64,000 nt of DNA from an uncultured Actinomycetota bacterium (GTDB lineage: Bacteria; Actinomycetota; Actinomycetes; Streptosporangiales; Streptosporangiaceae), in the NCBI GenBank assembly GCA_963851085.1, contig CAWKNX010000003.1, positions 261,318 to 325,317 of the forward strand. Direction: 5' to 3'. The notes under the pieces were generated by a model. That model worked only from the letters and a program-made list of their open reading frames with translations. It was not told the DNA's origin and searched no databases. The stretch's first letter is position 1, and every line of letters starts with the position of its first letter. This document shows positions 16,136 through 42,849 of this stretch, piece by piece. The position numbers were made by a program, and so were the translations under genes.

Positions 16136-16858
16136 CCACCCCTGACGTGCCGGGCGCCGTCATCAAGGTCGCGGCTGTGGACGATCACCCCATCGTGCTT
16201 GGCGGCATCTCAGCTGGCTCGAGGCGGAGCAGGGCGATATCCGCGTCGTCGGCACCGCGACGACGGTCGATGGCTTGCTGGCATCGGCCCTGGGCGGGAC
16301 GCCGACGTCGTCCTCCTCGATCTCGACCTGGGCGATGGCACGGCTGCCGAGCGTAACGTCGGCGTGATCCTCGCCGCGGGTGCTGCCGTCCTGATCCTCG
16401 CTGCCTCCGACAAACCGCTGTCCGTTCGTGCCGCGATGCGCGCGGGCGCCCTCGGGTACGTCCTCAAGAGCGAGGAGAACCACGCGGTGCGTGCCGCCAT
16501 CCGGGCGGTCGCGGCGGGTGAAGCGTGGGTCTCGCCGAGCCTGGCGTACATCCTTGCCACCGATGACGCACCGGACCGCCCCACCCTGAGCCCGCAGGAG
16601 ACGCGTGCGCTCCGGCTCTACGCCACGGGTATGCCGCTCAAGTCCGTCGCCCGCCGCATGTCGATCGGGGAGGAAACGGTCAAGCAGTACCTGGGGCGGG
16701 TGCGGGAGAAGTACGCCCGCGCCGGGCGCACCGCTGCCACGAAGCTTGATCTGTACCACCGGGCGGTCGAGGACGGGCACCTTCCCCCTCCATCTGCCGA
16801 GACAGCGTCAGTCCAGGGGGACGACCCCCTGGAACCCCCGCATGAGGCCAGCTTCTGA
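16132..16858 (+). pseudogene. NarL/LuxR-family response regulator, two frame breaks near the 5' end
   Basis: The receiver domain is split as VIKVAAVDDHPIVLGGISA / WLEAEQGDIRVVGTATTVDGLLASALG / RDADVVLLDLDLGDG.. The LuxR HTH is TLSPQETRALRLYATGMPLKSVARRMSIGEETVKQYLGRVREKY. Confidence 0.65.
16813..16847. repeat. Family-A GC-rich palindromic element, copy A1 (inside the regulator 3' end)
   Basis: ccagggggacgaccccctggaacccccgcatgagg has the same core as the copies at 20345-20640 (inverted), 33971-34275 and 42806-42849. Confidence 0.65.
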
Positions 16859-20344: not shown

Positions 20345-20640
20345 CGGGTTCCGGGGGGTCGTCCTCCCGGGCCTGGCACAGGCGGTCCGGTGGGGGGTTC
20401 CGGGGGGTCGTCCCCCCGGGCCCGCACAGCCCCGGGCGCGAGCGGTGCGAGTGGTCTGGTGGGGGGTTCCGGGGGGTCGTCCTCCCGGGCCCGCGCAGCC
20501 CCGGGCGCGAGCGGTGCGAGTGGTCTGGTGGGGGGTTCCGGGGGGTCGTCCTCCCGGGCCGGCGCAGGCGGTCCGGTGGGGGGTTCCGGGGGGTTGTCCC
20601 CCCGGGCCGGCACAGCCCCGGGCGCGAGCGGGGCCGGCGC
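20345..20640. repeat. Array of 5 family-A palindromic cores (inverted orientation) with two alternating, themselves repeated, linkers
   Basis: The core ggtggggggttccggggggtcgtcc(c/t)cccgggcc starts at about 20345, 20389, 20459, 20527 and 20575, giving spacings of 44, 70, 68 and 48 nt. ccgggggg tcgt ccccccgg forms a hairpin. Confidence 0.85.
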
Positions 20641-22358: not shown

Positions 22359-22387
22359 ATCGGCGCCCGGTGCCTTTGTGCGAGTAG

Positions 22388-24817: not shown

Positions 24818-25020
24818 TCAAGCGCGGCGAAAATGCCGTCCCACAACCGGGATCGCGCCCGCAATGCGGTGATAACCGTCTCCGCGCACGCGTCCAGCTT
24901 GGCTGTGTCGTCGCCGCACAGGTCGGCCACCATCTGCATGGCCATAGGCGTGTGCTGCTCGCCGTCGACCTCGATGTGCCGGGCCAGATAGTCACGGAAC
25001 GTAGCGAGCGTAACGTGACA
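24814..25020 (-). CDS. Small hypothetical protein (about 68 aa), start unresolved
   Basis: The C-terminal part of ORF 24814..25242 reads [65 protein letters not shown]. gggagagg precedes an ATG that is one base out of frame. No family is recognised, and it is not MbtH-like. Confidence 0.3.
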
Positions 25021-25097
25021 TAGCCTCTCCCTCGGCTCGATCTCCCGGCTCTTTGTCGCGCGCCGCACGCGGTCTGTCAACAGTGGCCAGGAATGTC

Positions 25098-26183
25098 TCA
25101 CCAGGGGAGGGCCCGGACGGCTGCCGCGTCGATGTCCGCGAGACGCGGCGTTCCAGCGAGCGCCATGACCTCGCTCAACTCGTCGCGCAGCAGCCTGAGC
25201 ACCGCGCTGACGCCCGCGGCTCCCGAGTGCGCAAGGCCCCACACCACGGGCCGCCCGACGAGGACCGCATGCGCGCCGAGAGCCAGCGCCTTGAACACAT
25301 CCGTGCCGGTACGGACACCGCCATCCACGAGGACAGGGATCCGGCCGGCCGCGGCGGCCACCACTTCAGGTAGTGCGTCAAGGCTGGCGATCGCTCCGTC
25401 AAGCTGGCGGCCGCCGTGATTCGAGACCACGACCGCGTCGATGCCGTGGTCTATCGCCAGGATTGTGTCCTCCGCCGTCGCTAGTCCCTTGAGCATGAGG
25501 GGGAGCGGCGTCTGCGCACGCAGCCAGGCCAGGTCGGCCCACGTGATGGTCGGATCGAACTCGCTGCTCGCATGGCGTTGCAGCGACGACGAGCCGGGCA
25601 CGCGCTCGTGCGCCTCGGCCATGACGGACGAGCCGACGTTAACGGCGCTGACCCCGGGCGGCAGCGTGAACCCGTTGCGGATGTCACGCAACCGCCGACC
25701 GAGGCGCGGCGCGTCGACCGTCAGCATCAGCGCCTGGCACCCGGCGGCGATGGCCCGCCGCAGCAGGGCGGCGAGCGTGTCACGCTGCCGCAGCCAGTAC
25801 ACCTGGAGCCACCATGTGCCGCCCGCGGCGGCGCCGATCTCCTCGAAAGTGCGGCTCGCGAACGTGCTCGCGATGAAAAGCGTCCCAGCGTCGCGCGCGG
25901 CCGCCGCGGCAGCGACCTCGCCGTCCGGATGGGCGAGCCGCTGAACGGCCATTGGCGCGATCACCACGGGGAAGTCAAGCGGCGCGCCGAGCAAGGTGCT
26001 GCTGAGGTCGCGTGCCGATATATCGACAAGAACCCTGGGGCGCACGATGATCCGCTTGAATGCCGCCAAATTAGCGTCAAGTGTGGACTCGGTGCCGCTG
26101 CCACCCTGGACGTAGTCCCAGACATCGTGCGGCAGCCTTGACCGCGCCGCAGTTTCAAACTCTTCCAGCCGTAGCAGTTCCAT
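25098..26183 (-). CDS. FMN-dependent alpha-hydroxy-acid oxidase (hydroxymandelate oxidase/Hmo-like)
   Basis: 361 aa with typical glycolate-oxidase-family blocks: [49 protein letters not shown]. Confidence 0.85.
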
Positions 26184-26409
26184 GCCAGTTCGCGCCTTTG
26201 CTATCCGGACCGATAGAGATCGCCTACCCTTGCCCTGCCATCACGCTGAAGATGATCGGGAGTTCTTGACCACCGTAGCCAGCGTGTGCGAATCTTGCGC
26301 CGGGTCACCCCAAACGTCGTCAAAAGCCATACGTCGTTATTAGCAGGATTCCTTACCATCTCGGTGGCACACCCGAGCCGCCAGGTGGGCATCCTGCCTG
26401 GGGGGAATA

Positions 26410-27834
26410 ATGGATCACGCTCCGCACGTGACAGCGCTGTCGCGGCCGGCCGGATGGGTCGATCAGATCCTTCTTGCGGGTAATGACGGTGATATATGCC
26501 TTTGGTTCGGCAGGCCTGTGGACCGAGGCGCGCTCCGTGACCTGGTCGCTGAGCAGCAGCGCAAGCTTGCCGCGGCGGGATTAGCCGCGGGCGGCACGGT
26601 TTCACTGCGCTTACCACCCTCGCTCGGTTATGTGGCTAGCCTGCTCGCGGCTTGGCGGATCGGCGCGCAGGTGAGCCTCCTCGATCATCGTTTGACCCAG
26701 TATGAGGTCGACCGCGCGCTCCAGCGGCTGGCACCCCAGGTGCTCGTGCAGGTCGCGGACACCGCGCCGCACGTGGTCCGCGCGATGCGCGGCTATGCCG
26801 AGGTGGTGACCGCCGCCCTGCCGCGTGCCGGTGGCCGCCCGGCCGCCACGGGCCACGCGCTCGTACAGCTCAGCTCCGGCTCGACCGGGCCTTCCAAGGT
26901 GATCGCGCGCACCGCGGGCGACCTCGTCGGGGAACTCGACCGCTACTCGGCGCTGGACGGTTACCCGCGCCAGGGTGAGCGGATCGTCTGCCTCGCGTCG
27001 GTTGTGCACGTTCTCGGCCTGGTCGGCGGCTTGCTGCACGGCCTGCACGCGGGCGTGGAGCTCGTATTCGCCGACCGGCTCATGCCTGACGGCATCCTCG
27101 CGGCGGTCGCGGCGGGCGACCGGCCCACGATGATCCTCGGCGTGCCGTTCCACGCCGAGCTGCTGACCTCGGTTGCCGCGCCGCCACCGCTCCCGCAGCT
27201 CGCGCGCATGGTCGTCGCGGGTGAACTGGTACGGCCGCACGTGCCAGGTGCCTTCACCGCCCGCTATGGCGTGCCGCTCGGGACCATGTACGGGATGACC
27301 GAGCTCGGGGTCATCGCCACCGATCTGCACGGCCGCCATCACCCGGCCGTCGCGCCCGCGCCGGGCATGGCCCTGCGGGTGGAGGCAGGAGAACTGCTCG
27401 TGGCGATGGCCGCCTCGCCCTACATCGGCCTGGTCGATCCGACCCGCTGGTCGGACGGCTGGCTGCACACCAGGGACGCCGCGGCCGCCGATCCAGCGAC
27501 CGGCCTGGTGACGATCCTCGGCAGGCTCGATTCGCAGGTGTCCATCGGCGGGCTCAAGGTCGACCTCACCGAGGTGGAGCAGAGCCTGGCGGCGCTGCCC
27601 GAGGTCACCGAGGTGGTCGTGGTCTACGACGACGTGATCAGGGCCTACCTCGCACTGCGCGACGGCGCGGCGGTGGCCGGCGTCGAGCGCGCCATCACCG
27701 AGCAGCTCGCGGCCTTCAAGCGGCCCCGTGACCTCCATGTGCTGCCGAGTCTGCCACGTACGGCCAGCGGCAAGATCGTTCGCGACCGTGCGGTGCTCTG
27801 CCTTCTCGCTGACGGCGAGTCGGTGGCCCGGTGA
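26410..27834 (+). CDS. Stand-alone AMP-dependent synthetase/ligase (short, 474 aa)
   Basis: Adenylation cores are LSSGSTGPSKVI, MYGMTELG, GWLHTRDAA and LPRTASGKIVR. Confidence 0.85.
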   Translation: MDHAPHVTALSRPAGWVDQILLAGNDGDICLWFGRPVDRGALRDLVAEQQRKLAAAGLAAGGTVSLRLPPSLGYVASLLAAWRIGAQVSLLDHRLTQYEVDRALQRLAPQVLVQVADTAPHVVRAMRGYAEVVTAALPRAGGRPAATGHALVQLSSGSTGPSKVIARTAGDLVGELDRYSALDGYPRQGERIVCLASVVHVLGLVGGLLHGLHAGVELVFADRLMPDGILAAVAAGDRPTMILGVPFHAELLTSVAAPPPLPQLARMVVAGELVRPHVPGAFTARYGVPLGTMYGMTELGVIATDLHGRHHPAVAPAPGMALRVEAGELLVAMAASPYIGLVDPTRWSDGWLHTRDAAAADPATGLVTILGRLDSQVSIGGLKVDLTEVEQSLAALPEVTEVVVVYDDVIRAYLALRDGAAVAGVERAITEQLAAFKRPRDLHVLPSLPRTASGKIVRDRAVLCLLADGESVAR

Positions 27835-28013
27835 ACCATCGCGCGGCGCGGGGGGGAGCCCCGCGGGCCGGCGGCGCCGCGCCCCCCGTCCGTGCGCAGC
27901 CTCGTCCGGTCATCCGCTGTTCGGGCCGCATGTGCCCGCCATGCGCAGCGAACGCACTTCGGCCCCGGCCGGCCAGGCTCGGGTCCCGCACCGATGGAAA
28001 GGAAGCCAAGCAG

Positions 28014-28292
28014 ATGCGTGAAGACAAGGACGTGGTCTGCCAGTTCGTCGTCGATTCCCTGCAGAAGATGAACTACGACGTCAGCGACGTCACTCCGGAC
28101 ACCGACCTGGGCCCGGCGGGTCTCGATCTCGAATCGCTGGCACTCGCCGAGCTCGCGATCCAGATCGAGGATGAGTTCGGCGTGCGGTTCGGCGACGACG
28201 ATACCGAGACACTCGCGCTCATGACTCTCGACGAGTTCGGCGCCGAGGTCGCCAGGCGTCTCGCTGCGGAGCCCGCGGCCAGGGCCGAGTGA
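28014..28292 (+). CDS. Acyl carrier protein 1
   Basis: ATG at 28014 follows ggaaaggaag. The phosphopantetheine-site context is DLGPAGLDLESLALAELAIQIEDEFGV. A longer GTG start at 27831 is possible, but the leader contains a REP-like palindrome. Confidence 0.8.
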   Translation: MREDKDVVCQFVVDSLQKMNYDVSDVTPDTDLGPAGLDLESLALAELAIQIEDEFGVRFGDDDTETLALMTLDEFGAEVARRLAAEPAARAE

Positions 28293-28582
28293 GCCCCATG
28301 CCCGCGCTCGATCGTGGCCAGGTCATCGCCCTGCTGGCGACGTTCGGCGACCGCGCGCCCGATGCGGTCGCGGACCAGATCAGCTCGCTGGAACTGACGT
28401 GGCTGATCGCTCAGATCGAGCAGCAATACGGCATCGTGCTCGACTTCAGCGACGATGTGCTTGCGGGAATGTCGACGGTCTCAGGTGCCACGGCGACGCT
28501 GCGCGCCGCGATCGCGGACGCGGATACACCGGCAGGTACACCGGCGGGGACCGAGGCCGATGCGCAGGCGCGGCATGGCTGA
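28289..28582 (+). CDS. Carrier protein 2 (ACP/PCP-like)
   Basis: GTG at 28289 overlaps the ACP1 stop (GTGA). The candidate Ser motif is ADQISSLELTWLIAQIEQQYGIVL, about 40 aa from the N-terminus. Confidence 0.55.
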   Translation: MSPMPALDRGQVIALLATFGDRAPDAVADQISSLELTWLIAQIEQQYGIVLDFSDDVLAGMSTVSGATATLRAAIADADTPAGTPAGTEADAQARHG

Positions 28583-29864
28583 CGAGCAGGCCGGCGGCGG
28601 CGCCGCGCGCGATGGGCCGCCCGCGCGCGATGGGCCGCCCGCGCGGGACGGACCGGCCGGGCGCGATGAGCCGGCCGCGGGCGCACGCGTGGTGCTTGCC
28701 CGAAACGCCGCGGCGCGCGAGATGGCGGTCCGCGGTTCGCCCGCGCACGTGCCTGTGGCCCGGGACGAGGCAGTGCTGACGGGCATGGGAGCCATGTCGG
28801 CGTTCGGCCGGGGGACCGGTCCGCTTTTCGACCGCGTGTCCGTGGGCACGCCCGCCTTCGCTGAGGTCACCCGGTTCGACGTCGCGCAGCGCCGCGTCAA
28901 GGCAGCCGCTCATGCTCCCGGTTCGCCCGAGCTCGCCGCCGAACTGGTGTCAGTCATCGAAGACGCGTGTGCCGACGCGGCGTGGGCACCGGACCAGCGC
29001 GCCGGCTGTCCCCTGCTGCTCGCCGCACACGCCGACCCGTCGGTCACCGGGAACCCGGAGACTCCCGGCCTCGGGCTTGCCGTGGCCGAGCGGTGCGGGC
29101 TGCGCGCCGGACCGCGCGTCTACACGGCGGCGTGCGTGGCCGCGAGTACCGCGGTAGCGGACGCGGCGACCATGATCACCTCTGGCCGCCTCGATCGCGT
29201 GGTGGTGGCGGCGGGTTATCTCGTGGATCCGGGGAACTTCGCGGTCTTCGACGCCGGCCGCGCTCTCGCGAAGGACGGCCGCGTCCGGCCCTTCAGCGCC
29301 CGGCGGCGGGGCATGCTGCTCGGCGACGGGGTTGCCGCGGTGGTGCTCGAGTCGGGGCGGGCCGCGCGCGGCCGGGGCGCGGACGTGCTCGCGAGGGTCG
29401 CCGGCTGGGGGCGTGCCGGTGACGCCTACCACGTCTGCCAGCCCAGGCCGGACGGGGCCGGGCTCGCGAGTGCGGTGCGATCCGCATTCCGGCGCGCCGG
29501 TGTAGCGCCTGCCGAGGTGGGATACGTCAACGCGAACGGCACCGGCACGCCGCAAAGTGACGCGGCGGAGGCGGCCGCGCTGCACCGCGCCTTCGGCGAG
29601 TGCATCGGCGGGGTCCCGGTCAGCTCGACCAAGTCGGTGCACGGCCACGCGCTGGAGGCGTCGGCGCTGCTTGAACTCGTCGTGACGGTGCTCGCCCTTC
29701 GCAGCGGCCTGCTGCCGGTCAACGCCGGCTTCCTGGAGCCTGACGCGGACTGTGAACTCGATCTTGTCCTCGACACGCCGCGTGCGGCCCTGCCGCGATA
29801 TGCGATGAGCGTCAACTTCGCCTTCGGCGGAGCCAACACGGCGTTGCTTGTGGGCGCGGGATGA
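28575..29864 (+). CDS. Beta-ketoacyl synthase (KAS I/II fold, Cys-His-His present)
   Basis: ATG at 28575 overlaps the carrier-protein-2 stop. Active-site contexts are YTAACVAASTAV, GDAYHVCQP and STKSVHGHALEAS. The C-terminus is FAFGGANTALLV. The N-terminus carries an ARDGPP x4 repeat. Confidence 0.85.
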   Translation: MADEQAGGGAARDGPPARDGPPARDGPAGRDEPAAGARVVLARNAAAREMAVRGSPAHVPVARDEAVLTGMGAMSAFGRGTGPLFDRVSVGTPAFAEVTRFDVAQRRVKAAAHAPGSPELAAELVSVIEDACADAAWAPDQRAGCPLLLAAHADPSVTGNPETPGLGLAVAERCGLRAGPRVYTAACVAASTAVADAATMITSGRLDRVVVAAGYLVDPGNFAVFDAGRALAKDGRVRPFSARRRGMLLGDGVAAVVLESGRAARGRGADVLARVAGWGRAGDAYHVCQPRPDGAGLASAVRSAFRRAGVAPAEVGYVNANGTGTPQSDAAEAAALHRAFGECIGGVPVSSTKSVHGHALEASALLELVVTVLALRSGLLPVNAGFLEPDADCELDLVLDTPRAALPRYAMSVNFAFGGANTALLVGAG

Positions 29865-30628
29865 GCCCGCGGCCCTCGGCCGGATGCGTGGCCAGCGAAC
29901 GGGACGCCGCCGCGGGCCGCGGGGTGAATATGCCAGGCGTTCCGGGCGAGCCCGGCTCGCCAGCCGGTCCGGATACCTCAAGGGCTCCGCACGTGCCGGG
30001 GCCTTCGGGTGTTCAAGCCGCTCTGGGCCCGTCGAGTGATCCCGGTGCGCCCGCCGGCGAGGGCCCCACGCAGGACCTGGCCATTCTCGCGCGTGCTCGC
30101 TGGCCGGAGCGGCCTGGCGACACCCTGACACCGATACCCGCATTCGTCGCGTCGTCGTTCAGCCCACTGGTGGCCGAGGTCGCGGACCGGTGCCTTCGTG
30201 CCTGCTACGGAACGCCTCCGGCCGAGCCCGCACGTGGCAGGAGAACCGCGATCGTGCTCGCGAGCAGGCACGGCGACGTGGGCACGTCCGCTGCCGTGGC
30301 GCAGGCTCTCGCCGAGCGCCGCCGCGTTCCACCGCTGCTGTTCTTCCAGTCGAACGTCAACGCGGTGATCGGCCATGTGGCGGCGCGCTGGGGCCTGGCG
30401 GGCCCCATCGTGTGCACCTGCCCGACTGGCGATCTGATCGCCGATGGGCTGGCGTGTGCCGCGTTGCTGTTCGAGGACGGTGACGCCAGCGAGGCGCTCG
30501 TCATTGCCGCCGACCAGGGATATGGCGGCGAATCCGACAGCGCGGCCGCGGTTCTGGCGGCCGCGTGGACGCGGCGGCCCGGCGCCTGGTCCCCCGGCGG
30601 CCAGCAGGAGGCAGGAGGAGTCACATGA
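29861..30628 (+). CDS. Small KS-N-terminal-like partner (chain-length-factor-like, no catalytic triad)
   Basis: The 255 aa, ATGA-coupled to the KS, read FVASSFSPLVAEVADRCL, PPLLFFQSNVNAVIGHVAARWGLAGPIV and ALVIAADQ. This resembles Ketoacyl-synt_2 / ApeC / Iga12-type CLFs from memory. It has a Pro-rich N-terminal extension. Confidence 0.5.
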   Translation: MSPRPSAGCVASERDAAAGRGVNMPGVPGEPGSPAGPDTSRAPHVPGPSGVQAALGPSSDPGAPAGEGPTQDLAILARARWPERPGDTLTPIPAFVASSFSPLVAEVADRCLRACYGTPPAEPARGRRTAIVLASRHGDVGTSAAVAQALAERRRVPPLLFFQSNVNAVIGHVAARWGLAGPIVCTCPTGDLIADGLACAALLFEDGDASEALVIAADQGYGGESDSAAAVLAAAWTRRPGAWSPGGQQEAGGVT

Positions 30629-32247
30629 AGGTCCCGAGCATGCGCGCGGCACTCGCGGCCGATGCCGAGATCGGCGCGGGCAACGTGGTCAGCATCCGGA
30701 TGGCAGGTGGCGCCGGTCTCGACGACCCGGTCGTCACGTTCGACAGCGATGTCGACGGCTCACCCGCCTGGCAGCCGCTGACGGTGCGGCAACTCGACCG
30801 GATGGCCGCGGCGCGCGCCGCGGCGCTGCACGGCCTTGGCATCGGGATGCGTGACCCGGTCGCGGTCATCGCTCCTACCGCTGCCGACACCGCGCTGGCC
30901 TTCCTCGGCCTCACCCGCCTCGGCGCGATCCCGGCGTTGATCAATCCATATCTGCCCACCGAACTCGCCGCGGAGTACATCCGCCGCCTCGGCGCGGTGG
31001 GGCTGATCACCGACGCGGCGCACGCGGAGCAGTTGTCCTCCCACGGCATCGCCACCCCGCGGCTTCCCGACGTCTCGGGCCTTGGCCGCGGCGATCCGGA
31101 AAGCTCTCCGCCCCCCTACAGGTATTACCCCACCGACCCGGTGGCGATCACGCATTCTTCGGGCACGACCGGCCTGCCCAAGGCGGTCGTGCACTCGCAT
31201 GGCAGCCTGTTCGCCGCGATCAGGTACCGGCTGCGACTGCCGAGACCGCAAGGTACCGAGCGGATGCTGAGTGCCCTGCCGTGCCCGCACGCGGCGGGCC
31301 TGATCGTGCTCAACCTCGCGCTGTGCAACGGCGGGCAGATGCTCATGCTGTCCAGGCAGACAGGGCCGAGCGTGCTCGACGCGATCGAACGGTGGCGGCA
31401 GGCCTGCGTGGTCGGATTCTCCACCACCTGGCCGGACCTGGTGAAGGCGGATCTGTCCCAGCGCGATCTGGATTGCGTGGCCCTGTGGTGGAACACCGGC
31501 GACTGCGCCCACGAGGCGCACATCCGGCGGCTGATCGGGCATGGCTCAAGGGACACGGTCACGTCGGCTGGCCGGGTGCGGCAGCCGGGCTCGGTGTTCG
31601 TCGACGGCCTCGGCTCCAGCGAGATGGGGCACTCGCACTTCCACATCGCCCATACCCAGGACTCGAACCGGTACGGCCGGTGTATCGGGCGCGCCCACTC
31701 GTTCGCCGACGCGCGGGTCTTCGGGCCGGACGGCGAGGAACTGCCGCCCGGCGAGGTGGGAGAGCTCGGCACGAGTTCTCCCACGGTTTCGCTCGGCTAC
31801 TGGAACGACTCGGCCACCACCTACCGGACCCGGATCCGCGGCTATTTCCTTACCGGGGATCTGGTCTATCGCGATGAGGAAGGCTACTTCTACCACCTGG
31901 ACAGGAAGGCCGACTCGGTCGATCTCGGCGGCGGCGCGCGCCTCTACACGGCAGCGTCAGAGGAACGGATCCTCGCGCGCTGCCCCGACGTTCTCGACTG
32001 CACGGTCGTGGCGGTTTCCGAGGGTGGGCGGGTGGTCACCGACGTGCTTCTCCAGCTCGATCCGGCGGCGGTCGCCGCCGGGCCGGTCGATCGCACCGAG
32101 CAGGTGCGCGCCGCGCTCGACGAGCGCGTCGCCGCCACGGTACGCCATGTCATACCTGTCGACGACGGCAACATCCCGCTGACTGCGACCGGCAAGGTCC
32201 GCAAGTTCGTGCTGCGGCAGCGCCACCTGGCGGAAGCGTCACGATGA
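30625..32247 (+). CDS. AMP-dependent synthetase/ligase (540 aa)
   Basis: ATG at 30625 overlaps the previous stop (ATGA). Adenylation cores are ITHSSGTTGLPKAV, GSSEMG, YFLTGDLVYRD and TATGKVRK. Confidence 0.85.
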   Translation: MKVPSMRAALAADAEIGAGNVVSIRMAGGAGLDDPVVTFDSDVDGSPAWQPLTVRQLDRMAAARAAALHGLGIGMRDPVAVIAPTAADTALAFLGLTRLGAIPALINPYLPTELAAEYIRRLGAVGLITDAAHAEQLSSHGIATPRLPDVSGLGRGDPESSPPPYRYYPTDPVAITHSSGTTGLPKAVVHSHGSLFAAIRYRLRLPRPQGTERMLSALPCPHAAGLIVLNLALCNGGQMLMLSRQTGPSVLDAIERWRQACVVGFSTTWPDLVKADLSQRDLDCVALWWNTGDCAHEAHIRRLIGHGSRDTVTSAGRVRQPGSVFVDGLGSSEMGHSHFHIAHTQDSNRYGRCIGRAHSFADARVFGPDGEELPPGEVGELGTSSPTVSLGYWNDSATTYRTRIRGYFLTGDLVYRDEEGYFYHLDRKADSVDLGGGARLYTAASEERILARCPDVLDCTVVAVSEGGRVVTDVLLQLDPAAVAAGPVDRTEQVRAALDERVAATVRHVIPVDDGNIPLTATGKVRKFVLRQRHLAEASR

Positions 32248-33530
32248 GCTGGCCAGGGGGGGACTGCGCCGCCGTTACGGGAATCGGCCTTGTCACCCCG
32301 CTCGGCCGCGACACCGGCGAGTTCTTCGACGCGGTCTGCGCGGGCCGCTCCGGCCTCCGCGCACCGCCGGAGAAGCATCCGGTCGCGGAAACGCTCGAGG
32401 TGGTGGGGATCGCGCCGGAAATCGATGCCGCGTCGCTGCTCCCGCCGACCGAGCTGCGATGCGTCGACCGTTTCGTCCTGCTTGCCCTCGCCGCCGCGAC
32501 GGATGCGCTCGCGGACGCGGGAATCGAAGCCGGGCGCGACGTCGACCCGTACCGGATCGCGGTGATCGCCGCCACCGGCGGTGGCGGCCTCGAGACGTTC
32601 GAGGAGTATTCCCACTCGCGTTTCCAGCGCGGGCGCCCCGCCGTGAGCGCGTATCTGCTGCCGGGGATGCTGTCCAACATGGCGACCGCGCGGATCGCCA
32701 TCAAGCATCAGATCCAGGGCTACAGTACGGCGATCGTCACGGCCTGCGCGGCGGGTGCCCAGGCGATCGCGGAAGGCCTGCGTCTCATCCGCGATGGTGA
32801 AGCCGACGTCGTCATCTGCGGGGGCGCCGAGTCGCCCCTGCATCCGACCATCGCCGCCGCTTTCGCCAACGCGCGGGCGCTGGCCCGTGGATGGGCAGAT
32901 CCCACGGCGGCGAGCAGGCCTTTCGACCGTGGCCGCAACGGCTTCGTGCTCGCGGAAGGCGCTTGCATGTTCGTGCTTGAGCGTGCCGCGTTCGCGCAGG
33001 CACGCGGCGCGGCAGCGTACGCCGACCTGATCGGCTGGGGGGCGACGACCGACGCCCATCACCCGACGATGCCCCGTCCGGACGGTGCCGGCGCGGCCGA
33101 GTGCATGCGCAGGGCAATTGCCGGCGCGGGCCTGGGCCCAGCCGACGTCGGCTACGTGAACGCGCACGCGACGAGCACCAAGCGTGGTGATGCCGCCGAG
33201 GCGGCCGCCATCCGCTCCGTCTTCGGCGCCCACCGGCCGGCGGTCAGCTCGATCAAGGGGGTGACCGGCCATCTCCTTGGCGCCTCAGGCGCCGTCGAGG
33301 CCGCCGCGACGGCGCTCGCGGTTGGCCGCGGCGTCCTGCCGCCCACGCACAACCTCACCGATCCCGATCCGGCGTGCGACCTTGACCACGTGCGCGCAGC
33401 GGCCAGGACAGGTCAGGTGCACGCCGCCCTGTCGAATTCCTTCGCCTTCGGTGGCCACAACCTCAGCCTGCTTTTCGGCCGGTCAGGCACCAGCCCGAGC
33501 CGCACGACCACCGCACGAGGTGCACGATGA
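32244..33530 (+). CDS. Beta-ketoacyl-ACP synthase II (FabF-like)
   Basis: Active-site contexts are IVTACAAGAQAI, TDAHHPTMP and SIKGVTGHLLGASG. The C-terminus is NSFAFGGHNLSLLF. Both start and stop overlap the neighbouring genes. Confidence 0.9.
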   Translation: MSWPGGDCAAVTGIGLVTPLGRDTGEFFDAVCAGRSGLRAPPEKHPVAETLEVVGIAPEIDAASLLPPTELRCVDRFVLLALAAATDALADAGIEAGRDVDPYRIAVIAATGGGGLETFEEYSHSRFQRGRPAVSAYLLPGMLSNMATARIAIKHQIQGYSTAIVTACAAGAQAIAEGLRLIRDGEADVVICGGAESPLHPTIAAAFANARALARGWADPTAASRPFDRGRNGFVLAEGACMFVLERAAFAQARGAAAYADLIGWGATTDAHHPTMPRPDGAGAAECMRRAIAGAGLGPADVGYVNAHATSTKRGDAAEAAAIRSVFGAHRPAVSSIKGVTGHLLGASGAVEAAATALAVGRGVLPPTHNLTDPDPACDLDHVRAAARTGQVHAALSNSFAFGGHNLSLLFGRSGTSPSRTTTARGAR

Positions 33531-35007
33531 CCATTCAGGGGATCGACCACCTGGAGTTCTATGTCGCCGACGCGCGGCAGGCCGCTGGCCAGTTATGTGA
33601 TGCCTACGGTTTCCGCGTGCACGGCGAGGGTAGCCCGCGCACCGGGCTGGCGGGCCAGCGGTCGGTGCTCGTCCGGCTGCGGGATATCCGCATCCTGCTC
33701 ACCTCCGGTCTTTCCGCCGATCACCCGGCCGTCAGGTATGTGCGCAGGCACGGCGACGGCGTGGCGGTCATCGCGTTAGCCACCGATGACGCGCACGCTG
33801 CGTTCGCCGAGGCGTTACGGCGGGGTGCCGATCCGGTGGCCGACCCGGTCGTATACGAGCGTGGCGTCAGCCGCACGACGTTCGCCTCGGTGTCAGCGTT
33901 CGGCGACGTCGCCCACAGGTTCGTTCAGCGGCTCGGGCCCGATGACGACTTCGCGCCCGGCGTCATCCGGCGGCAGTCGCTAGGCAGTGCCGCCCCGGGG
34001 GAGCGACCCCCCGGGATCCCCCCGCAGGAGCCGTTGCCGCATCCGCGGCAGTCGCTAGGCAGTGCCGCCCCGGGGGGACGACCCCCGGGATCCCCCCGCA
34101 GGAGCCGTTGCCGCATCCGCGGCAGTCGCTAGGCAGTGCCGCCCCGGGGGAGCGACCCCCCGGGATCCCCCCGCAGGAGCCGTTGCCGCATCCGCGGCAG
34201 TCGCTAGGCAGTGCCGCCCCGGGGGGACGGCCCCCCGGGATCCCCCCGCAGGAGCCGTTGCCGCATCCGCGGCAGTCGTTAAGGATCATGGAGGGTCACC
34301 ACGGCGGACCCGGAGACGAGGATCGGTCGGACGCCCCGGCCGACCGCGATGACGTCCTCGAGGTGATCGACCACATCGCCGCCTGCGTGCCCGCGGGAAC
34401 GCTCGGCGCGGTGGCCGGTGCCTACGGCGACATCTTCGGCTTCTCCCAGATCTTCGCAGAGCGCATCGAGGTCGGCGGCCAGGCGATGGACTCGAGGGTG
34501 GTGCAGAGCCCGTCAGCCGGGGTGACGCTGACCCTGCTGGAGCCCGCCGGAAGCGGGGATCCGGGTCAGATCGACGAATTCCTGCTGTCGCACGGCGGCC
34601 CCGGAGTGCAGCACGTGGCGTTCCGCACGCCAGGTATCGCCGAGGCGGTGCGGATCCTGGAAAAGCGCGGCGTGCGGTTCCTTGCCACCCCGCCCGCATA
34701 CTACGACGCGCTCGAACGCCGGCTTGGCGCGGCGGAGCTTCCGGTGCAGGAACTCCGGGACCTCAATGTGCTCGCTGACCGCGACCCGTGGGGGCTGATG
34801 TTCCAGATCTTCACCCAGTCGGTGCACCCGAGGCGGACTCTCTTCTTCGAGCTGATCGAGCGACGGGGCGCGCTCACGTTCGGCAGCGGGAACATTCGTG
34901 CCCTTTATGAGGCGGTCGCACGTGAGCACGCTGCCGCCGGGCCCCCGCAGGCCGGACCGCCGCCCGCCCCCGGCCAGGGATCCGGCGGCGCGCCGGCTGA
35001 TTCGTGA
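33527..35007 (+). CDS. 4-hydroxyphenylpyruvate dioxygenase family enzyme (HmaS/HPPD-like) with a 4 x 25-aa tandem insertion between its two domains; one frame break inside the repeat
   Basis: The N-domain is IQGIDHLEFYVADARQAAGQL..GDGVAVIAL. The C-domain is VIDHIAACVP..GVQHVAFRT..LADRD..GLMFQIFTQ..FFELIERRG..GFGSGNIRALYEAV. The two halves lie in frames 2 and 1 because one of the four repeat units is 74 nt rather than 75 nt. Confidence 0.8.
33971..34275. repeat. Tandem array, about 4 units of 75 bp, each containing a family-A palindromic core
   Basis: Unit starts (cggcagtcgctagg) at 33971, 34046, 34120, 34195 and 34270, giving periods of 75, 74, 75 and 75. The unit is cggcagtcgctaggcagtgccgccccgggggg(a)cgacccccgggatccccccgcaggagccgttgccgcatccg. 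It encodes RQSLGSAAPG(E/G)RPPGIPPQEPLPHP. Confidence 0.9.
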
Positions 35008-35960
35008 TGCGGCACGGACCGCCGCCTGGGAGGCAGATCATGTCCACGTCGTTCAGGCCCGCGGAGGCGTTCATGCTGACGGCCGGCGAGCGCGGCTTGC
35101 TGCCATCAGACGCCGACGTCCAGTGGTACGCGGAACACGGCTGGTATCTGTCCAAACGGCTGCTCACCGACGAGGAGACCGAGACGCTGCACACCGCGAG
35201 CGAGCGGTACTACGCGGGTCAGCGTGACCGCGTGTTACCGCGGCGGCCACCGAACCTCGCCTACTGGCAGCCGTCACACGGGCAGGTCCAGCGGCACAAC
35301 GACTACGTTCACTACGAAAGCGACGAACTCGCGCGTATTCTCCGCAAGCCGCTCATCGGGGCGGTCGCCGCACGGCTGGCGGGAAGCAGCGAGACCAGGA
35401 TCTTCCAGGCGACGCTCATCTACAAGCCGCCGCTGCGGGACGAGCAGACGAACCTCGTGCCGTGGCACGCCGACCGGCACTACTGGCAGACCTGCACATC
35501 CGAGCGGATGCTGACCGCTTTCATCCCGTTCCACGACTGCGGCGAGGACATGGGCACGATCACGATGATCGACGGGAGTCACCGGTGGAAGGAGCCGCCG
35601 GGCGGAGACGACTCCACCCGCCACTTCGCGCAGCGTGACCGCGGCGAGCTCGAGGCCCTGCTCGCCGAGACGGCACGCTTCAACGGGGCCGAGGTGGTGC
35701 AGACCCCGATGGTGATCCCGAAGGGCCATATGAGCTTCCATCACTGCCGGATCTACCACGGCAGCGGGGCGAACGTGAGTGGCCGCCCACGGCGCAGCGT
35801 GTCACTGCACATGCAGGACGGCGAGAACCAGTGGCGGCGCTACCTCCGCCCGGACGGCGGCACCCTCGTCTACAACAACGACGTCCTCGTCCGCAGGACG
35901 AGCGGCGGCACGCCGGACTACGCCGACCCCGTGTACTGCCCAGTGACATGGAGGGCTTAG
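35004..35960 (+). CDS. Phytanoyl-CoA dioxygenase (PhyH) family Fe(II)/2-oxoglutarate oxygenase
   Basis: 318 aa with the HxD context LVPWHADRHYW, a distal His in FHHCRIYHGSGAN and an Arg in RRSVSLH. The start overlaps the previous stop. Confidence 0.75.
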   Translation: MMRHGPPPGRQIMSTSFRPAEAFMLTAGERGLLPSDADVQWYAEHGWYLSKRLLTDEETETLHTASERYYAGQRDRVLPRRPPNLAYWQPSHGQVQRHNDYVHYESDELARILRKPLIGAVAARLAGSSETRIFQATLIYKPPLRDEQTNLVPWHADRHYWQTCTSERMLTAFIPFHDCGEDMGTITMIDGSHRWKEPPGGDDSTRHFAQRDRGELEALLAETARFNGAEVVQTPMVIPKGHMSFHHCRIYHGSGANVSGRPRRSVSLHMQDGENQWRRYLRPDGGTLVYNNDVLVRRTSGGTPDYADPVYCPVTWRA

Positions 35961-35962
35961 CC

Positions 35963-36934
35963 GTGCCGCAGGCGGCGAGCGAGCTCTACCGGACGATGCG
36001 GCTGATCCGCAGCTTCGAGGAACGGGCGCTGCAACTGGTGAAGTCGGGCGACATCGTCGGTGGCACCCATCCGTACATCGGCCAGGAGGCGGTCGCCACC
36101 GGTGTCTGCGCGGCGCTGCGCGGCGATGACCTCATCACGGGAACGCACCGCGGTCATGGGCACGTTCTCGCCAAGGGCGGCGATCCACGGCGCGTGCTCG
36201 CCGAGCTCGCGGGCAAGGAGACCGGGCTCAACCGTGGCCGTGGCGGCTCGATGCACGCCGCCGACCTCGGGCTGGGCATCCTGGGTGCCAACGCGATCGT
36301 GGGTGCCGCCGCCCCGATCAGCGTCGGTGCCGCGTGGTCGGCGCGCCGGACGGGCAGCGGCCAGGTGGTGGCGACCTTCTTCGGCGACGGCGCGCTCAAC
36401 CAGGGCGTGCTGCTCGAGGCGATGAACCTGGCCTCGCTGTGGAGCCTGCCCGTCCTGTTCGTGTGCGAGAACAACGGCTACGCGACCACGATGCCGTTCG
36501 CGACCTCGGTGGCAGGGACCGCGGCCGGCCGCGCGGAGGCGTTCGGCATCACGGCGCGGTCGGTCGACGGGATGGACGTCGAGCAGGTCCGGGACGCGGC
36601 GGCCGACATGGTCTCCCGCGCCCGTGGCGGGCAGGGCCCGGGCTTCCTCGAGTGCATGACCTATCGGTTCGGCCCGCATCACACGATGGAGTACCGGCTC
36701 AAGCTCTCCTACCGCTCCGCGGCCGAGATAGCACGGTGGAAGGAGCGTGACCCGCTCGACATCGAGGGAGCCAGGCTCGCCGCAGGGGACAGGGAGCGGA
36801 TCGACGAGGAGGTCGCGGCGGTCATCGATGCGGCGGCCGAGTTCGCGCGCTCGAGCCCATCGCCGGATCCGGCGGGCGCGCTCGACTTTCTCTATGCCAG
36901 CGGCCTGCGGCCCCGGGCGGGGGGAGCCGCCTGA
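35963..36934 (+). CDS. TPP-dependent 2-oxoacid dehydrogenase E1 alpha subunit
   Basis: GTG at 35963 lies 7 nt after ggaggg (alternative ATG at 35948). Motifs are YRTMRLIRSFEERA, GTHRGHGH, GGSMH and FFGDGALNQGVLLEAMNLASLWSLPVLFVCENNGYA. Confidence 0.85.
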   Translation: MPQAASELYRTMRLIRSFEERALQLVKSGDIVGGTHPYIGQEAVATGVCAALRGDDLITGTHRGHGHVLAKGGDPRRVLAELAGKETGLNRGRGGSMHAADLGLGILGANAIVGAAAPISVGAAWSARRTGSGQVVATFFGDGALNQGVLLEAMNLASLWSLPVLFVCENNGYATTMPFATSVAGTAAGRAEAFGITARSVDGMDVEQVRDAAADMVSRARGGQGPGFLECMTYRFGPHHTMEYRLKLSYRSAAEIARWKERDPLDIEGARLAAGDRERIDEEVAAVIDAAAEFARSSPSPDPAGALDFLYASGLRPRAGGAA

Positions 36935-37896
36935 TGACCTGGCTGTCGTATGCGAAGGCGCTCAACCGGGCGCTGGGTGACGAGATGGCGCGCGACCCGG
37001 CAGTCTGCGTGTTCGGCGAGGACGTCCAGGCCGGGATCGCCGGGCTGACGTTGGGGCTGCACAAGCGTTTCGGCGGCGACCGCATCGTCGACATGCCCCT
37101 GTCGGAGCAGGCGTTCACCAGCATGGCCACCGGCGCGGCCATGACGGGGACGCGGCCGGTAATCGAATTCCAGATACCTTCGCTGCTTTTCCTGGTTTTC
37201 GAGCAGATCGCCAACCATGCGCACAAGTTTTCATTGATGACTGGCGGCCAGGTAGCGGTCCCTGTCACGTACATCGTGCCGGGATCGGGTTCGCGGATGG
37301 GATGGGCAGGCCAGCACTCCGACCATCCGTACAGCCTTTTTGCCCACGTAGGAGTCAAGACGGTTGTCCCCTCGATGCCGTCCGACGTCTATGGCCTGCT
37401 CGTATCCGCGATCCGCGACGAAGATCCGACCGTGATATTCGCTCCCACCGGTGCGATGGGAGTGCGCGAGGACATTACCTCCGAGCTCGTGGCTGTCCCG
37501 CTCGGCTCGGCGCGAATTCACCGGGGCGGGTCTGATGTCACCGTTGTCGCGGTCGGGCATCTCGTCCACGACGCGCTTGCGGTCGCGGCGGAAATCGCCG
37601 GCGACGTGTCGCTGGAAATCTTCGACCCGCGCACGCTGTACCCCTTCGACTGGGACGCGCTCATGTCGTCGTTGCGCAAGACCCGGCGCCTGGTAGTGAT
37701 CGATGACTCCAACAGGTATTGCGGCTTCGGCGCTGAGGTGATCGCGACTGTCGCGGAGGAACTGCAACTGATCGCGCCGCCCAAGCGGGTGACCCGGCCG
37801 GACGGCGCCGTGCTGCCCTTCGCGCTGGAACTCGACCGGGCTGTTCAGCCGAGCCGAGATCAGCTCGTGGCCGCGATCAGGGCGGTCATGAAGTAG
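36934..37896 (+). CDS. 2-oxoacid dehydrogenase E1 beta subunit
   Basis: The ATG overlaps the alpha-subunit TGA by 1 nt. Motifs are ALNRALGDEMARDPAVCVFGEDV, DMPLSEQAFTSMATGAAMTGTRPVIEFQ and a C-terminal transketolase-C-like part. Confidence 0.9.
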   Translation: MTWLSYAKALNRALGDEMARDPAVCVFGEDVQAGIAGLTLGLHKRFGGDRIVDMPLSEQAFTSMATGAAMTGTRPVIEFQIPSLLFLVFEQIANHAHKFSLMTGGQVAVPVTYIVPGSGSRMGWAGQHSDHPYSLFAHVGVKTVVPSMPSDVYGLLVSAIRDEDPTVIFAPTGAMGVREDITSELVAVPLGSARIHRGGSDVTVVAVGHLVHDALAVAAEIAGDVSLEIFDPRTLYPFDWDALMSSLRKTRRLVVIDDSNRYCGFGAEVIATVAEELQLIAPPKRVTRPDGAVLPFALELDRAVQPSRDQLVAAIRAVMK

Positions 37897-37952
37897 CTGT
37901 TCCCGCGGCCTGACAGACTGGCCCGGACAGCGTCGTCCCCGAGGAGGTCTCC

Positions 37953-38981
37953 ATGCTGCCGTGGTCGGCTGAACTTGCCGGGCGAATCGACCGGCAGGTG
38001 ATCGCCAGCGAGGCGCTGCGGGGCAATCCGCTCGGGGATCCGGCGCAGCGTCCGCTGTGGGTGCAGCTGCCACCTGGTTACGACGACGATCCCGCGCGCC
38101 GCTTTCCCTCCGTCTACGTGCTTCAGGGCTACACCGGTCATCTGTCGATGTGGGCGAACAGGCCAGCATACGGCCAGCCATTCCCCGAACTGGCCGACGA
38201 GGTGTTCGCGAGCGGGCAGGCACCCCCGGCGATCGTGGTGTACGTGGACGCGTGGACGGCCTACGGCGGCAGCCAGTTCGTCGACTCGGCAGGCACCGGG
38301 CGCTATCACACGTACCTGTGCGACGAGGTCGTCCCGTGGGTCGACGCCAGGTACCGCACGCTCGCGGGCCGTGACCATCGCGCGATCAGCGGCAAGTCGA
38401 GTGGCGGCTTCGGTGCGATGATCACGCCGATGCTGCGGCCGGACCTTTTCTCTGCGCTGGCCACGCACGCTGGCGATTCGCTGTACGAGATGTGCTACAT
38501 CCCGGGTCTGGCCACGGCGGTTCGGCACTTGCGCGATTACGACGGGGACATCATGGCTTGGTGGGCGGATTTCCGCTCCCGCCCGAACCTCCAGAAGGAC
38601 GGCGATCTGGATCTGCTGATGCTCCTTGGCGTTTCCGCCTGCTTCTCGGCCGGCGACGACGGCGTGCCCGAGCTGCCGATGGAGCCGGACACGGGCGTAC
38701 TGCGCGAGGGCGTCTGGCAGCGCTGGCTGGACTGGGATCCGGTCCGTATGGTGCCCGCGCACGCGGGCGCACTCCGCTCCATGCGCGCGATCTGGATCGA
38801 CGCCGGCACCAGGGACGACTTCTTCCTCGACTTGGGCGCCGCAGCGTTCCGGCAGGCGCTGGCCAATGCCGGCGTGCGGGACGACGCTATTGCTTTCGAG
38901 CTGTTCGACGGCAAGCACGGCGGTATCGGTTACCGGTATCCGATGGCGCTCGCCTGGCTCTGTGAGCGGATAGCGGCATAA
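37953..38981 (+). CDS. Putative esterase family (PF00756-like) alpha/beta hydrolase
   Basis: It has FPSVYVLQGYTG, the nucleophile elbow ISGKSSGGFGAM and C-terminal FELFDGKHG. Confidence 0.7.
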   Translation: MLPWSAELAGRIDRQVIASEALRGNPLGDPAQRPLWVQLPPGYDDDPARRFPSVYVLQGYTGHLSMWANRPAYGQPFPELADEVFASGQAPPAIVVYVDAWTAYGGSQFVDSAGTGRYHTYLCDEVVPWVDARYRTLAGRDHRAISGKSSGGFGAMITPMLRPDLFSALATHAGDSLYEMCYIPGLATAVRHLRDYDGDIMAWWADFRSRPNLQKDGDLDLLMLLGVSACFSAGDDGVPELPMEPDTGVLREGVWQRWLDWDPVRMVPAHAGALRSMRAIWIDAGTRDDFFLDLGAAAFRQALANAGVRDDAIAFELFDGKHGGIGYRYPMALAWLCERIAA

Positions 38982-40343: not shown

Positions 40344-42794
<2,451 letters not shown>

Positions 42795-42805
42795 CACCGT
42801 CTTGC

Positions 42806-42849
42806 CCCGGGGGGCGACCCCGGGATCCCCGCAGGCCGTGGCGGCCGCT
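42806..42849. repeat. Family-A palindromic element, copy A4 (between convergent genes)
   Basis: ccccggggggcgaccccgggatccccgcaggccgtggcggccgc lies 12 nt after the MFS stop. Confidence 0.65.

Follow-up and report, generated by a model that had tools for sequence, protein, structure and literature searches.

The window analysed here (the whole 64-kb stretch of DNA) contains, inside a gene resembling HmaS and HPPD genes, a tandem array of short units built around a palindrome. This raises the question of what the array is: a DNA element that has come to reside in a protein-coding gene, a peptide selected by the host, or a product of assembly. If it is an element, the further question is what became of the enzyme, as the gene is split into two open reading frames in the sequence as assembled.

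Anatomy of the array and its host gene

The array occupies positions 33971-34269 and consists of four head-to-tail units of 75, 74, 75 and 75 nt. The unit starts that had been given in the initial annotation (33971, 34046, 34120, 34195 and 34270) were matched exactly. TRF delimited the array at 33964-34278, with a period of 75, 4.2 copies, 95% matches and a score of 579; it also gave a 149-nt higher-order period, since unit 3 repeats unit 1 exactly. The features of the locus are the following:

33527..35007, + strand: host gene, HmaS/HPPD-like two-barrel VOC dioxygenase (from ORFs, Pfam and structure alignment)
33964..33984, + strand: left boundary, ATCCGGCGGCAGTCGCTAGGC, a degenerate loop-2 and direct-repeat segment of the element
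33971..34045, + strand: unit 1, 75 nt, with hairpin 1 at 33994-34015
34035-34050, + strand: hairpin 2 of unit 1, TGCCGC ATCC GCGGCA, extending into unit 2
34046..34119, + strand: unit 2, 74 nt, with hairpin 1 at 34069-34089
34120..34194, + strand: unit 3, 75 nt, same sequence as unit 1, with hairpin 1 at 34143-34164
34195..34269, + strand: unit 4, 75 nt, loop variant GGGGGGACGGCCCCCC, with hairpin 1 at 34218-34239
34270..34289, + strand: terminal direct repeat and right end of the element, CGGCAGTCGTTAAGGATCAT, encoding RQSLRIM in the host gene

The left boundary runs into the beginning of unit 1, as the phase defined on the element differs from the unit phase used initially. Each of the two junctions of the array was recovered in independent Logan contigs from run ERR11748454. 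The first of these (L189) ends within unit 1, while the second (L290) starts in the last unit, has a right junction identical to that of the window and thereby backs the right end of the element. The hairpin stems of the window units are 8-9 bp long. No intrinsic terminator or promoter was found within the array, the hairpins being devoid of a T tract, and no known RNA family was detected in the whole window at Rfam gathering thresholds. The significance of the fold is weak for a single unit (z = -0.76), because any sequence so rich in G/C folds well; the isolated hairpins gave z = -1.7 to -4.4 and the whole array, folded as RNA, z = -3.3.

Restoring one C gives a host protein of 493 aa, of which 393 aa remain when the array is left out. 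The array then encodes (RQSLGSAAPG[E/G]RPPGIPPQEPLPHP)x4 at residues 149-248, in line with the earlier estimate that four units of 25 codons add about 100 aa. Pfam matches Glyoxalase_5 and Glyoxalase_3 in the N-terminal part of the protein, and Glyoxalase and Glyoxalase_4 in its C-terminal part. The closest solved structure is 2R5V (E=1.1e-84), which we take to be HmaS of A. orientalis, and 1T47, taken as the nearest chain of a bona fide HPPD, follows at 2.5e-59. His283, His363 and Glu442, presumably the metal triad of the enzyme, are invariant alignment columns. As judged from sequence, with two VOC barrels, a conserved putative metal triad and a solved HmaS close by, the host gene can be classed as HmaS/HPPD-like. 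A FMN_dh gene and an aminotransferase gene are also present in the window, and the window ORFs scanned by Pfam are biosynthetic or transport genes.

In the alignment with 2R5V, the insertion point maps to the interdomain linker. For the blocks at residues 1-150 and 281-470, the AlphaFold2 model gives mean pLDDT values that range from 83 to 98 and mostly exceed 90, while residues 157-160, 162-265 and 267-269 fall below 50, with no secondary structure across the span. The model therefore predicts two confidently folded barrels and a disordered insert, low pLDDT alone being no proof of disorder. Pfam, the structure alignment and the model agree in placing the array between the two barrel domains, as had been proposed, and the predicted contrast between confident barrels and a low-confidence insert is consistent with the surface linker that had been anticipated.

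A dispersed family of palindromic elements

The units belong to a repeat family whose aligned copies share a core of about 41 nt, with the consensus CGGTGCTGGCCCGGGGGGACGACCCCCCGGAACCCCCCGCC. In the window the palindromic core pattern occurs 10 times, whereas 100 shuffles give an expectation of 0.00, and a search with the family profile (nhmmer) detected 11 copies at 4 sites. Apart from the HmaS array, these sites are:

16806..16843, + strand: degenerate single copy (CCAGGGGGACGACCCCCTGGAACCCCCGC), intergenic, found by nhmmer
20346..20615, - strand: second array of the same family, 5 cores with periods of 48 and 69 nt
42797..42835, + strand: degenerate single copy of the HmaS subtype (..GGGATCCCCGCAGG), found by nhmmer

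A single 994-aa ORF (19597-22581) contains the second array, which is in frame and separates the GDSL-hydrolase domain from the O-methyltransferase domain. The copy at 42797-42835 begins 3 nt downstream of the TAA stop of an MFS transporter gene; the core thus recurs elsewhere in the window and at a gene end, as first noticed. More than 130 copies of the family were found altogether, with few exceptions in MAGs of Streptosporangiaceae type. Among GTDB representative genomes, the degenerate core pattern matched more than 118 stretches; of the matches listed, nearly all are in Streptosporangiaceae or in uncultured 'Actinomycetes' MAGs.

The complete element comprises two hairpins over about 90 nt and is bounded by direct repeats of about 15 nt, the 75-nt unit being one period. 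The direct repeat, GCAGCCGTTMRGGAT, is present at both the start and the end of composite copies. Hairpin 1, CCGGGGGG-NNNN-CCCCCCGG, is followed by a C6 tract, and hairpin 2, TGCCGC-ATCC-GCGGCA, by the direct repeat again. All copies of the composite family finish in GCGGCAGCCGTTMRGGATCAT. The consensus core folds into an 8-bp G/C stem with a 4-nt loop (-11.3 kcal/mol as DNA, z = -2.5). It is free of stop codons in all six frames, and the unit is so in four of six. The repeats that flank the element are conserved in sequence at all loci examined. We considered that the 14-15-nt flanking repeat might be a target-site duplication of HmaS sequence, and rejected this since the same repeat is found at all other loci. 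A CRISPR-like array was likewise discarded, the 'spacers' between palindromes being repeats themselves.

The unit is also found intergenically in other genomes: at 75-77 nt it forms a two-copy array in contig L087 and occurs as a single copy at L001:133-197, and the 75-nt unit is intergenic in L193-L208 as well. It was detected at 17 stretches in 4 MAGs (L087 and the HmaS copy included), mostly after the same direct repeat. These matches support the view that the whole 75-nt unit, and not the palindrome alone, is the dispersed element.

Residence inside genes appeared not to be peculiar to HmaS. Among 120 evaluable copies, 19 (about 16%) lie in a continuous frame with GC3 of at least 0.85 on both sides; the other 101 have no continuous coding frame. 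In eight of the nine ORFs tested, the copy is located between Pfam domains (HrpA, ValS, MetH, FO synthase, NadE, HemA, oxoprolinase and sarcosine oxidase alpha), and in the ninth, an MMPL protein, it is inside the MMPL match. Across different genes, the core is seen translated in all six frames. Sequence comparison therefore supports in-frame residence between domains as a general habit of the family, in many other genes. The site of the ValS copy is a hypervariable loop, in which a relative (L286) bears an unrelated tandem insertion. No clean empty site was found at the ValS copy, and the insertion footprint is not definable from ValS.

Orthologues, unit number and reading frame

Orthologues of the HmaS-like gene carry a remnant or one, two, three or four units. 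P0001 (contigs L186 and L187) has three in-frame units of 75+75+72 nt. P0002 (L001), otherwise identical to P0001 outside the array, has a single unit, which comes from a k=141 short-read assembly and could be a collapsed three-unit array. P0011 (L185; 96.6-98.2% nucleotide identity to the window) retains an in-frame remnant without hairpin 1. L185 and L188 are error-prone contigs, so that the remnant of L185 could be partly artefactual. A PHPRQP remnant is kept in P0004 and P0007, and RQP[F/L] in P0003, P0006 and P0008; the sister clade (P0009-P0013) has none of the unit or remnants. Every orthologue gene call recovered from the protein database is open across the linker. Comparison of orthologues thus showed differing unit counts and a sister clade lacking the array, which is consistent with the copy-number polymorphism that had been suspected. 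It supports an insertion that would be ancestral to the orthologue clade and would then have expanded or decayed, rather than a recent event in this strain.

A clean empty site was sought for HmaS and none was found, as 'empty' orthologues retain a match to the right end of the element. The right module of the subfamily may instead have been captured from HmaS, which would be another origin for it. A metagenome scan for the HmaS left junction returned only WNFJ01692915, which was already known, and a plasmid collection gave no match. Searching proteins with the repeat peptide yielded no candidate beyond the word filter.

The open frame of all recovered orthologue calls, including the one with the 72-nt unit variant (P0001), together with a repeat peptide made of 32% Pro and 14% Gly, could indicate a functional Pro-rich module, such as a spacer or docking repeat, selected by the host and kept for its protein sequence, not as a DNA-level element. 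We regard this as very improbable. The nucleotide sequence is identical in intergenic DNA, the core is translated in six frames depending on the gene, most of the module is lost in several orthologues and its predicted structure is featureless.

The number of units requires separate consideration. The window has four, against two in L188 (assembly ERZ25039489), which is 99.84% identical to it. Head-to-tail units of 40-100 bp in varying copy number correspond to a VNTR or minisatellite, for which collapse in assembly is possible. The element could then be real and the array length an artefact, either the four units being mis-expanded or the two of L188 collapsed. In favour of this, near-identical haplotypes gave four and two units in two assemblies, the short-read Logan contigs break within the first and last units, and units 1 and 3 are identical. 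On the other hand, L188 differs from the window by 5 SNPs and may represent another haplotype in which the copy number really is different, the window contig reads through the array into unique sequence on either side, and the three-unit array of a related species, whose units are distinguishable, is found in both NCBI and JGI metagenome records. An artefactual length appears somewhat unlikely.

The split of the gene has a single cause. The C-run of unit 2 (34082-34086) is C5, while it is C6 in the other units, and this moves the frame between ORF 33527-34132 and ORF 34108-35007, with stop codons at 34130-34132 in the window sequence as assembled. That one difference in G/C-run length splits the ORF, as initially annotated, is therefore confirmed. 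L188 (ENA assembly ERZ25039489) has C6 in unit 2. It differs from the window by three indels in addition to the SNPs, and its other two indels are one of homopolymer length and one single-base deletion outside a homopolymer. Since L188 carries C6, the window frameshift is probably a homopolymer error. The most likely source of the 74-nt unit is an error in the long-read consensus or a slip of very recent date, and not an old inactivation.

The C5 frameshift could nevertheless be a real inactivation, in which case the array and a true 1-nt deletion in unit 2 would have turned the HmaS-like gene into a pseudogene, with loss of the cluster product. The frameshift and the stops are indeed present in the given sequence, and G/C homopolymers in hairpins are natural slippage sites. 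Against this, the frameshift is the only defect, with His283, His363, Glu442 and 80 invariant columns intact; the nearly identical haplotype has C6; the linker is read through in the orthologue gene calls; and the flanking genes of the cluster are intact, the remaining cluster genes being full length when compared with L186. We thus consider a true pseudogene unlikely. Programmed -1 ribosomal frameshifting at the C-run was rejected, by inspection only, as CGA CCC CCG is no canonical slippery heptamer.

Possible origin and relation to known repeats

We think it probable that an element of the family entered the linker-coding stretch of the HmaS-like gene in an ancestor of the clade, expanded there and was tolerated, the C5 run likely being an error. 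A near-pure G/C palindromic element spread throughout Streptosporangiaceae would have entered the linker in the ancestor of the orthologue clade. Slippage or unequal recombination between direct repeats would then add or remove periods of 75 nt (25 codons); since adjacent units share one direct repeat, such events would change whole 75-nt periods. The stop-free core would give a Pro/Gly/Arg-rich peptide, and copies of a length divisible by three would persist, disordered, in surface linkers. The insert would be translated and the enzyme would presumably retain its activity.

A more far-reaching proposal, which we hold to be quite improbable, is that the family, instead of being junk that is passively tolerated, generates linkers and gene fusions in a lineage-specific way. 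Its elements, made of G/C only, open in six frames and carrying self-similar direct repeats, would seed interdomain regions by preference and expand there, with +/-1 slippage at G/C homopolymers leading to contingency-locus-like switching. Neighbouring genes could in this way be joined in a single ORF, for which the GDSL-array-OMT ORF at 19597-22581 would be an example, and the hydroxymandelate-synthase step of the biosynthetic cluster would be reversibly switchable.

Under the reading of a tolerated and expanded element, the locus may be a counterpart, in a further bacterial lineage, to the 'selfish DNA' that Rickettsia carries in frame; it is from Rickettsia that palindromic repeats colonising functional genes are best known. 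Rickettsia palindromic elements (RPEs) are small dispersed palindromic repeats found in frame in many unrelated functional housekeeping genes, where their peptides sit at places that the fold tolerates (PMC10969869). The present family resembles them in having in-frame copies in unrelated intact genes, at positions predicted to be compatible with the fold. It differs in several respects: the host is a free-living, high-GC Actinomycetota; the core is about 40 nt and the composite about 90 nt, against about 150 bp; the core consists almost entirely of G/C and is open in all six frames, while an RPE codes for a single conserved peptide; tandem arrays occur, with unit counts differing between orthologues; and copies are mostly intergenic. 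Given lineage and base composition, homology to the ten Rickettsia RPE families is implausible. A case in a large-genome, antibiotic-producing actinomycete would mean that such colonisation is a general outcome of a stop-free element meeting tolerant linkers. The natural series of 0.5 to 4 units lends itself to asking how much linker an HPPD-fold enzyme accepts. Such arrays also break short-read assemblies and draw homopolymer errors in long-read ones, and can therefore create false pseudogenes and gene fusions in MAG annotation and in the mining of biosynthetic clusters.

REPs are GC-rich stem-loops of 20-40 nt in many copies, mostly extragenic or immediately downstream of genes and occasionally intragenic; one end of the stem-loop carries a tetranucleotide tag, either GTAG or CGTC, by which they are classified (Di Nocera et al. 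2013, PMC3733652). The family shares with them a short, GC-rich, imperfectly palindromic sequence that can fold into a stem-loop, and its numerous dispersed copies are likewise mainly extragenic. In the consensus, neither tetranucleotide is adjacent to the stem, the only CGTC being the reverse complement of the loop. The arrays are head-to-tail with direct repeats, unlike the inverted pairs of REPINs or BIMEs. MITEs such as Correia/NEMIS, ERIC and the QMITEs of Coxiella are small and non-autonomous, with occasional in-frame ORF fusions and stable RNA hairpins (PMC10969869). They have terminal inverted repeats and target-site duplications, whereas the present element has terminal direct repeats of conserved sequence. 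No terminal inverted repeats were found, the palindromes being internal. As the bounding repeats are direct and not inverted, the element is not a classical MITE. Of the REP/MITE-like nature first suggested, the REP-like dispersed family is thus retained, and a classical MITE is not. Actinobacteria also possess MIRU-type VNTRs, which are 40-100-bp head-to-tail repeats present at many loci, with unit counts that vary between strains. These are mainly intergenic within operons and have no strong G/C palindrome core. The family, likened to them by description only, shares dispersed head-to-tail units in the 40-100-bp range and their varying counts.

Array, reading frame and host enzyme

Direct re-measurement and Tandem Repeats Finder (33964-34278, period 75, 4.2 copies, 95% matches, score 579) confirmed the array described in the initial annotation, with unit starts at 33971, 34046, 34120, 34195 and 34270 and lengths of 75, 74, 75 and 75 nt. 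A second, higher-order period of 149 nt was also returned, which reflects the identity of units 1 and 3. The reading frame is indeed split by the length of a G/C run, as had been claimed: the C-run at 34082-34086 is C5 in unit 2 versus C6 in the remaining units, and this single missing base separates ORF 33527-34132 from ORF 34108-35007. Restoring one C gave a 493-aa product in which residues 149-248 read (RQSLGSAAPG[E/G]RPPGIPPQEPLPHP)x4, a peptide containing 32% Pro and 14% Gly.

With the array removed, what remains is a 393-aa protein that its Pfam matches identify as a two-barrel VOC dioxygenase. Its best solved relative was 2R5V (E=1.1e-84), which we take to be the 4-hydroxymandelate synthase of Amycolatopsis orientalis, followed by 1T47 (2.5e-59), presumably the HPPD of Streptomyces avermitilis. 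These matches bear out the HmaS/HPPD-like assignment, and the alignment of the array with the short interdomain linker of 2R5V bears out its placement between the two barrel domains. His283, His363 and Glu442, taken here as the metal triad, are invariant columns among 44 homologues. A structure prediction, suggested in the initial annotation, was made with AlphaFold2 for the repaired 493-aa protein, using an alignment of 44 sequences. Over residues 1-150 and 281-470, most ten-residue blocks had a mean pLDDT exceeding 90 (range 83-98), and pLDDT fell below 50 at residues 157-160, 162-265 and 267-269, in a span without secondary structure. The model fits an insert that is a disordered loop joining two confidently predicted barrels that would fold independently.

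Two genes of the window bear on the function of the host gene.
23510-24817: aminotransferase
25098-26183, minus strand: FMN-dependent dehydrogenase

HmaS, an Hmo-like enzyme and an aminotransferase form the hydroxyphenylglycine route. Since this trio is present in the window, the gene is probably, on sequence grounds, a real HmaS inside a biosynthetic cluster. The surrounding genes encode two AMP-ligase/ketosynthase pairs, a PhyH dioxygenase, E1 alpha/beta subunits and an esterase. L186, an NCBI metagenome record, shares their order over the stretch that runs from the ketosynthase-like gene immediately upstream of the second AMP-ligase to the esterase. The genes at 23510-38981 resemble a biosynthetic cluster containing a hydroxyphenylglycine-type module.

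Over 4.9 kb, contig L188 (contig_80079, ENA assembly ERZ25039489) matches the window at 99.84% identity, with 5 SNPs and 3 indels. Its array has two units, with C6 in unit 2; the second indel is a G5/G4 homopolymer difference, and the third, a single-base deletion outside homopolymers, breaks its own HmaS. The Flye-like contig naming suggests a noisy long-read consensus. L185 (contig_80077) belongs to the same ENA assembly and sample, and several gene calls are frameshifted in both contigs. They appear to be variants at the strain level whose assemblies derive from noisy long reads, and their indels should therefore not be over-interpreted. Both array junctions are confirmed by Logan contigs of run ERR11748454, which match the window at 100% identity: one (L189) stops inside unit 1 and another (L290) starts inside the last unit. 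Because L188 carries C6 and because gene and cluster are otherwise intact, we favour with reasonable confidence a sequence error or very recent slippage at C5 over an established pseudogene; four units are plausible as the true copy number.

A dispersed two-hairpin element

The window has 10 matches to the palindromic core pattern, and shuffled sequences gave an expectation of 0.00. A scan of GTDB representative genomes with a degenerate version of this pattern identified more than 118 stretches; among the matches listed, nearly all are in Streptosporangiaceae or uncultured 'Actinomycetes' MAGs, a few are in cultured Streptosporangiales (Allonocardiopsis, Actinomadura, Thermomonospora), and the remaining handful are poly-G/C junk. 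The aligned copies gave the core consensus CGGTGCTGGCCCGGGGGGACGACCCCCCGGAACCCCCCGCC, with no GTAG or CGTC tag abutting the stem, and the flanks right of the core divide into subfamilies.

The subfamily of the HmaS unit comprises 17 stretches in four MAGs, the HmaS copy included. When these were aligned with their flanks, the element was found to start with a direct repeat, GCAGCCGTTMRGGAT, followed by CTGTGCTGCC, hairpin 1 (CCGGGGGG-GCGA-CCCCCCGG), GATCCCCCCGCACCAATGGA and hairpin 2 (TGCCGC-ATCC-GCGGCA), and to close with a second copy of the direct repeat and CAT; the aligned loci have no terminal inverted repeats. Many of these loci carry tandem arrays in which adjacent units have one direct repeat in common, hence the 75-77-nt period; array periods at other loci vary from 38 to 129 nt among the matches listed. 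A near-identical 2-unit array follows an oxidase gene in intergenic DNA of L087, a contig from another genome, and a single copy of the unit lies at L001:133-197. By its sequence, the 75-bp HmaS unit is thus one period of a dispersed element. Its construction in situ from a palindrome and HmaS sequence was rejected, since the unit is present at these other loci.

One further subfamily (L067, L071, L074, L084, L086, L104, L119, L168 and others) has a second G6-7/C6-7 hairpin right of the core and at least four C6-7 runs inside about 60 nt; on its opposite strand, G-quadruplex formation would be possible in principle.

The family profile located three sites in the window besides the HmaS array.
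16806-16843: degenerate single copy, intergenic
20346-20615, minus strand: five copies, periods 48 and 69 nt
42797-42835: degenerate single copy of the GGGATCCCC-GCAGG subtype, like the HmaS units

The last begins 3 nt past the TAA stop of an MFS transporter gene (40365-42794), in agreement with the earlier claim that the core occurs at gene ends. The five-copy array, translated as SGGGFRGVVPPG..., joins the GDSL-like hydrolase (aa 54-231) and O-methyltransferase (aa 372-646) parts of an uninterrupted 994-aa ORF (19597-22581). No stop codon separates the two enzymes, and internal ATGs precede the O-methyltransferase part. The element may have mediated a gene fusion here, or the ORF may simply run through a stop-free intergenic array. 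Four other tandem arrays of the window (62658-62853, 60817-61084, 40711-40808 and 52819-52908; periods 84, 18/36, 21/42 and 21 nt), some inside ORFs, appear unrelated to the family.

History and spread of the array

Every array state is represented among HmaS orthologues (72-82% identity), and the comparison proposed in the initial annotation revealed copy numbers of three, one or a remnant. P0001 has three in-frame units (75+75+72 nt), found in two metagenome records, NCBI (L186) and JGI (L187); P0002 (L001) has one and is identical to P0001 outside the array. L185 (P0011), which shares 96.6-98.2% DNA identity with the window, lacks window 33977-34245; what is left of the array, RAAPQEPLPHPRQ, is in frame and has no hairpin 1. 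P0004 and P0007 retain PHPRQP, the translation of hairpin 2 and the direct repeat. P0003, P0006 and P0008 retain RQP[F/L] only, and a match to the element's right end persists in their linker DNA (ATCCARCGGCAGCCGTT..). A neighbour-joining tree of HmaS homologues computed without the linker placed the listed orthologues bearing units or remnants in one clade; linkers in the sister clade (P0009-P0013) and in more distant homologues are short and unrelated. All gene calls recovered from the protein database continue across the linker without interruption. The simplest reading of these sequences would be a single ancestral insertion followed by expansion, contraction and palindrome loss. A clean empty site was sought at the HmaS and ValS loci and none was found.

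The element has two hairpins and common direct repeats, and unit counts differ between near-identical sequences. Slippage or unequal recombination between direct repeats may account for unit gain and loss, and palindrome-stimulated deletion for the loss of hairpin 1 seen in three lineages. The dispersed family, the unit counts of orthologues and the linker position support the initial proposal of a REP-like element expanded in frame in an enzyme linker.

Rickettsia palindromic elements are inserted in frame in unrelated functional genes at fold-compatible positions (PMC10969869), as are copies of the present family. The family is likewise similar to the intragenic REPs of Di Nocera et al. (PMC3733652), but lacks the REP tag, and expands in the manner of MIRU-type VNTRs. 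It is set apart by its lineage and by its shorter, G/C-only core open in six frames, and its terminal repeats are direct, not inverted. By the features tested, it is a member of none of them. In a literature search of incomplete coverage, no account of a family of this type in Streptosporangiales was found. The array is real and is a lineage-specific version of an already-known phenomenon, with practical consequences for the annotation of MAGs and biosynthetic clusters.

In-frame copies in other genes

A continuous reading frame with GC3 of at least 0.85 on both sides was found for 19 of 120 evaluable copies. Nine such ORFs were scanned against Pfam, and in eight the copy lies between domains.

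Position of the copy in the nine scanned ORFs
HrpA-like helicase (L170): between Helicase_C and HA2
ValS (L172): between catalytic core and anticodon domain
MetH (L093): between B12-binding and activation domains
FO synthase (L148): between the two radical-SAM halves
NadE (L068): between CN_hydrolase and NAD_synthase
HemA (L069): two copies, between GlutR_N and NADPH domain
Oxoprolinase (L130): between hydantoinase A and B
Sarcosine oxidase alpha (L147): between N-terminal FAD-binding matches and A3 domain
MMPL protein (L139): inside the first MMPL match

Across different genes, copies are read in all six frames; stop codons are absent from every frame of the core and from four of the six frames of the 75-nt unit. 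We infer that selection filters insertions, so that those retained are in frame and in linkers that tolerate them. In L172 the palindromic element occupies a loop of ValS; in L286, from another MAG (ValS locus, about 301-1092), that loop carries a Pro/Ala-rich tandem insertion of PEPAASPERAAP repeats, unrelated to the element. This loop seems to be a general hot spot tolerant of insertions.
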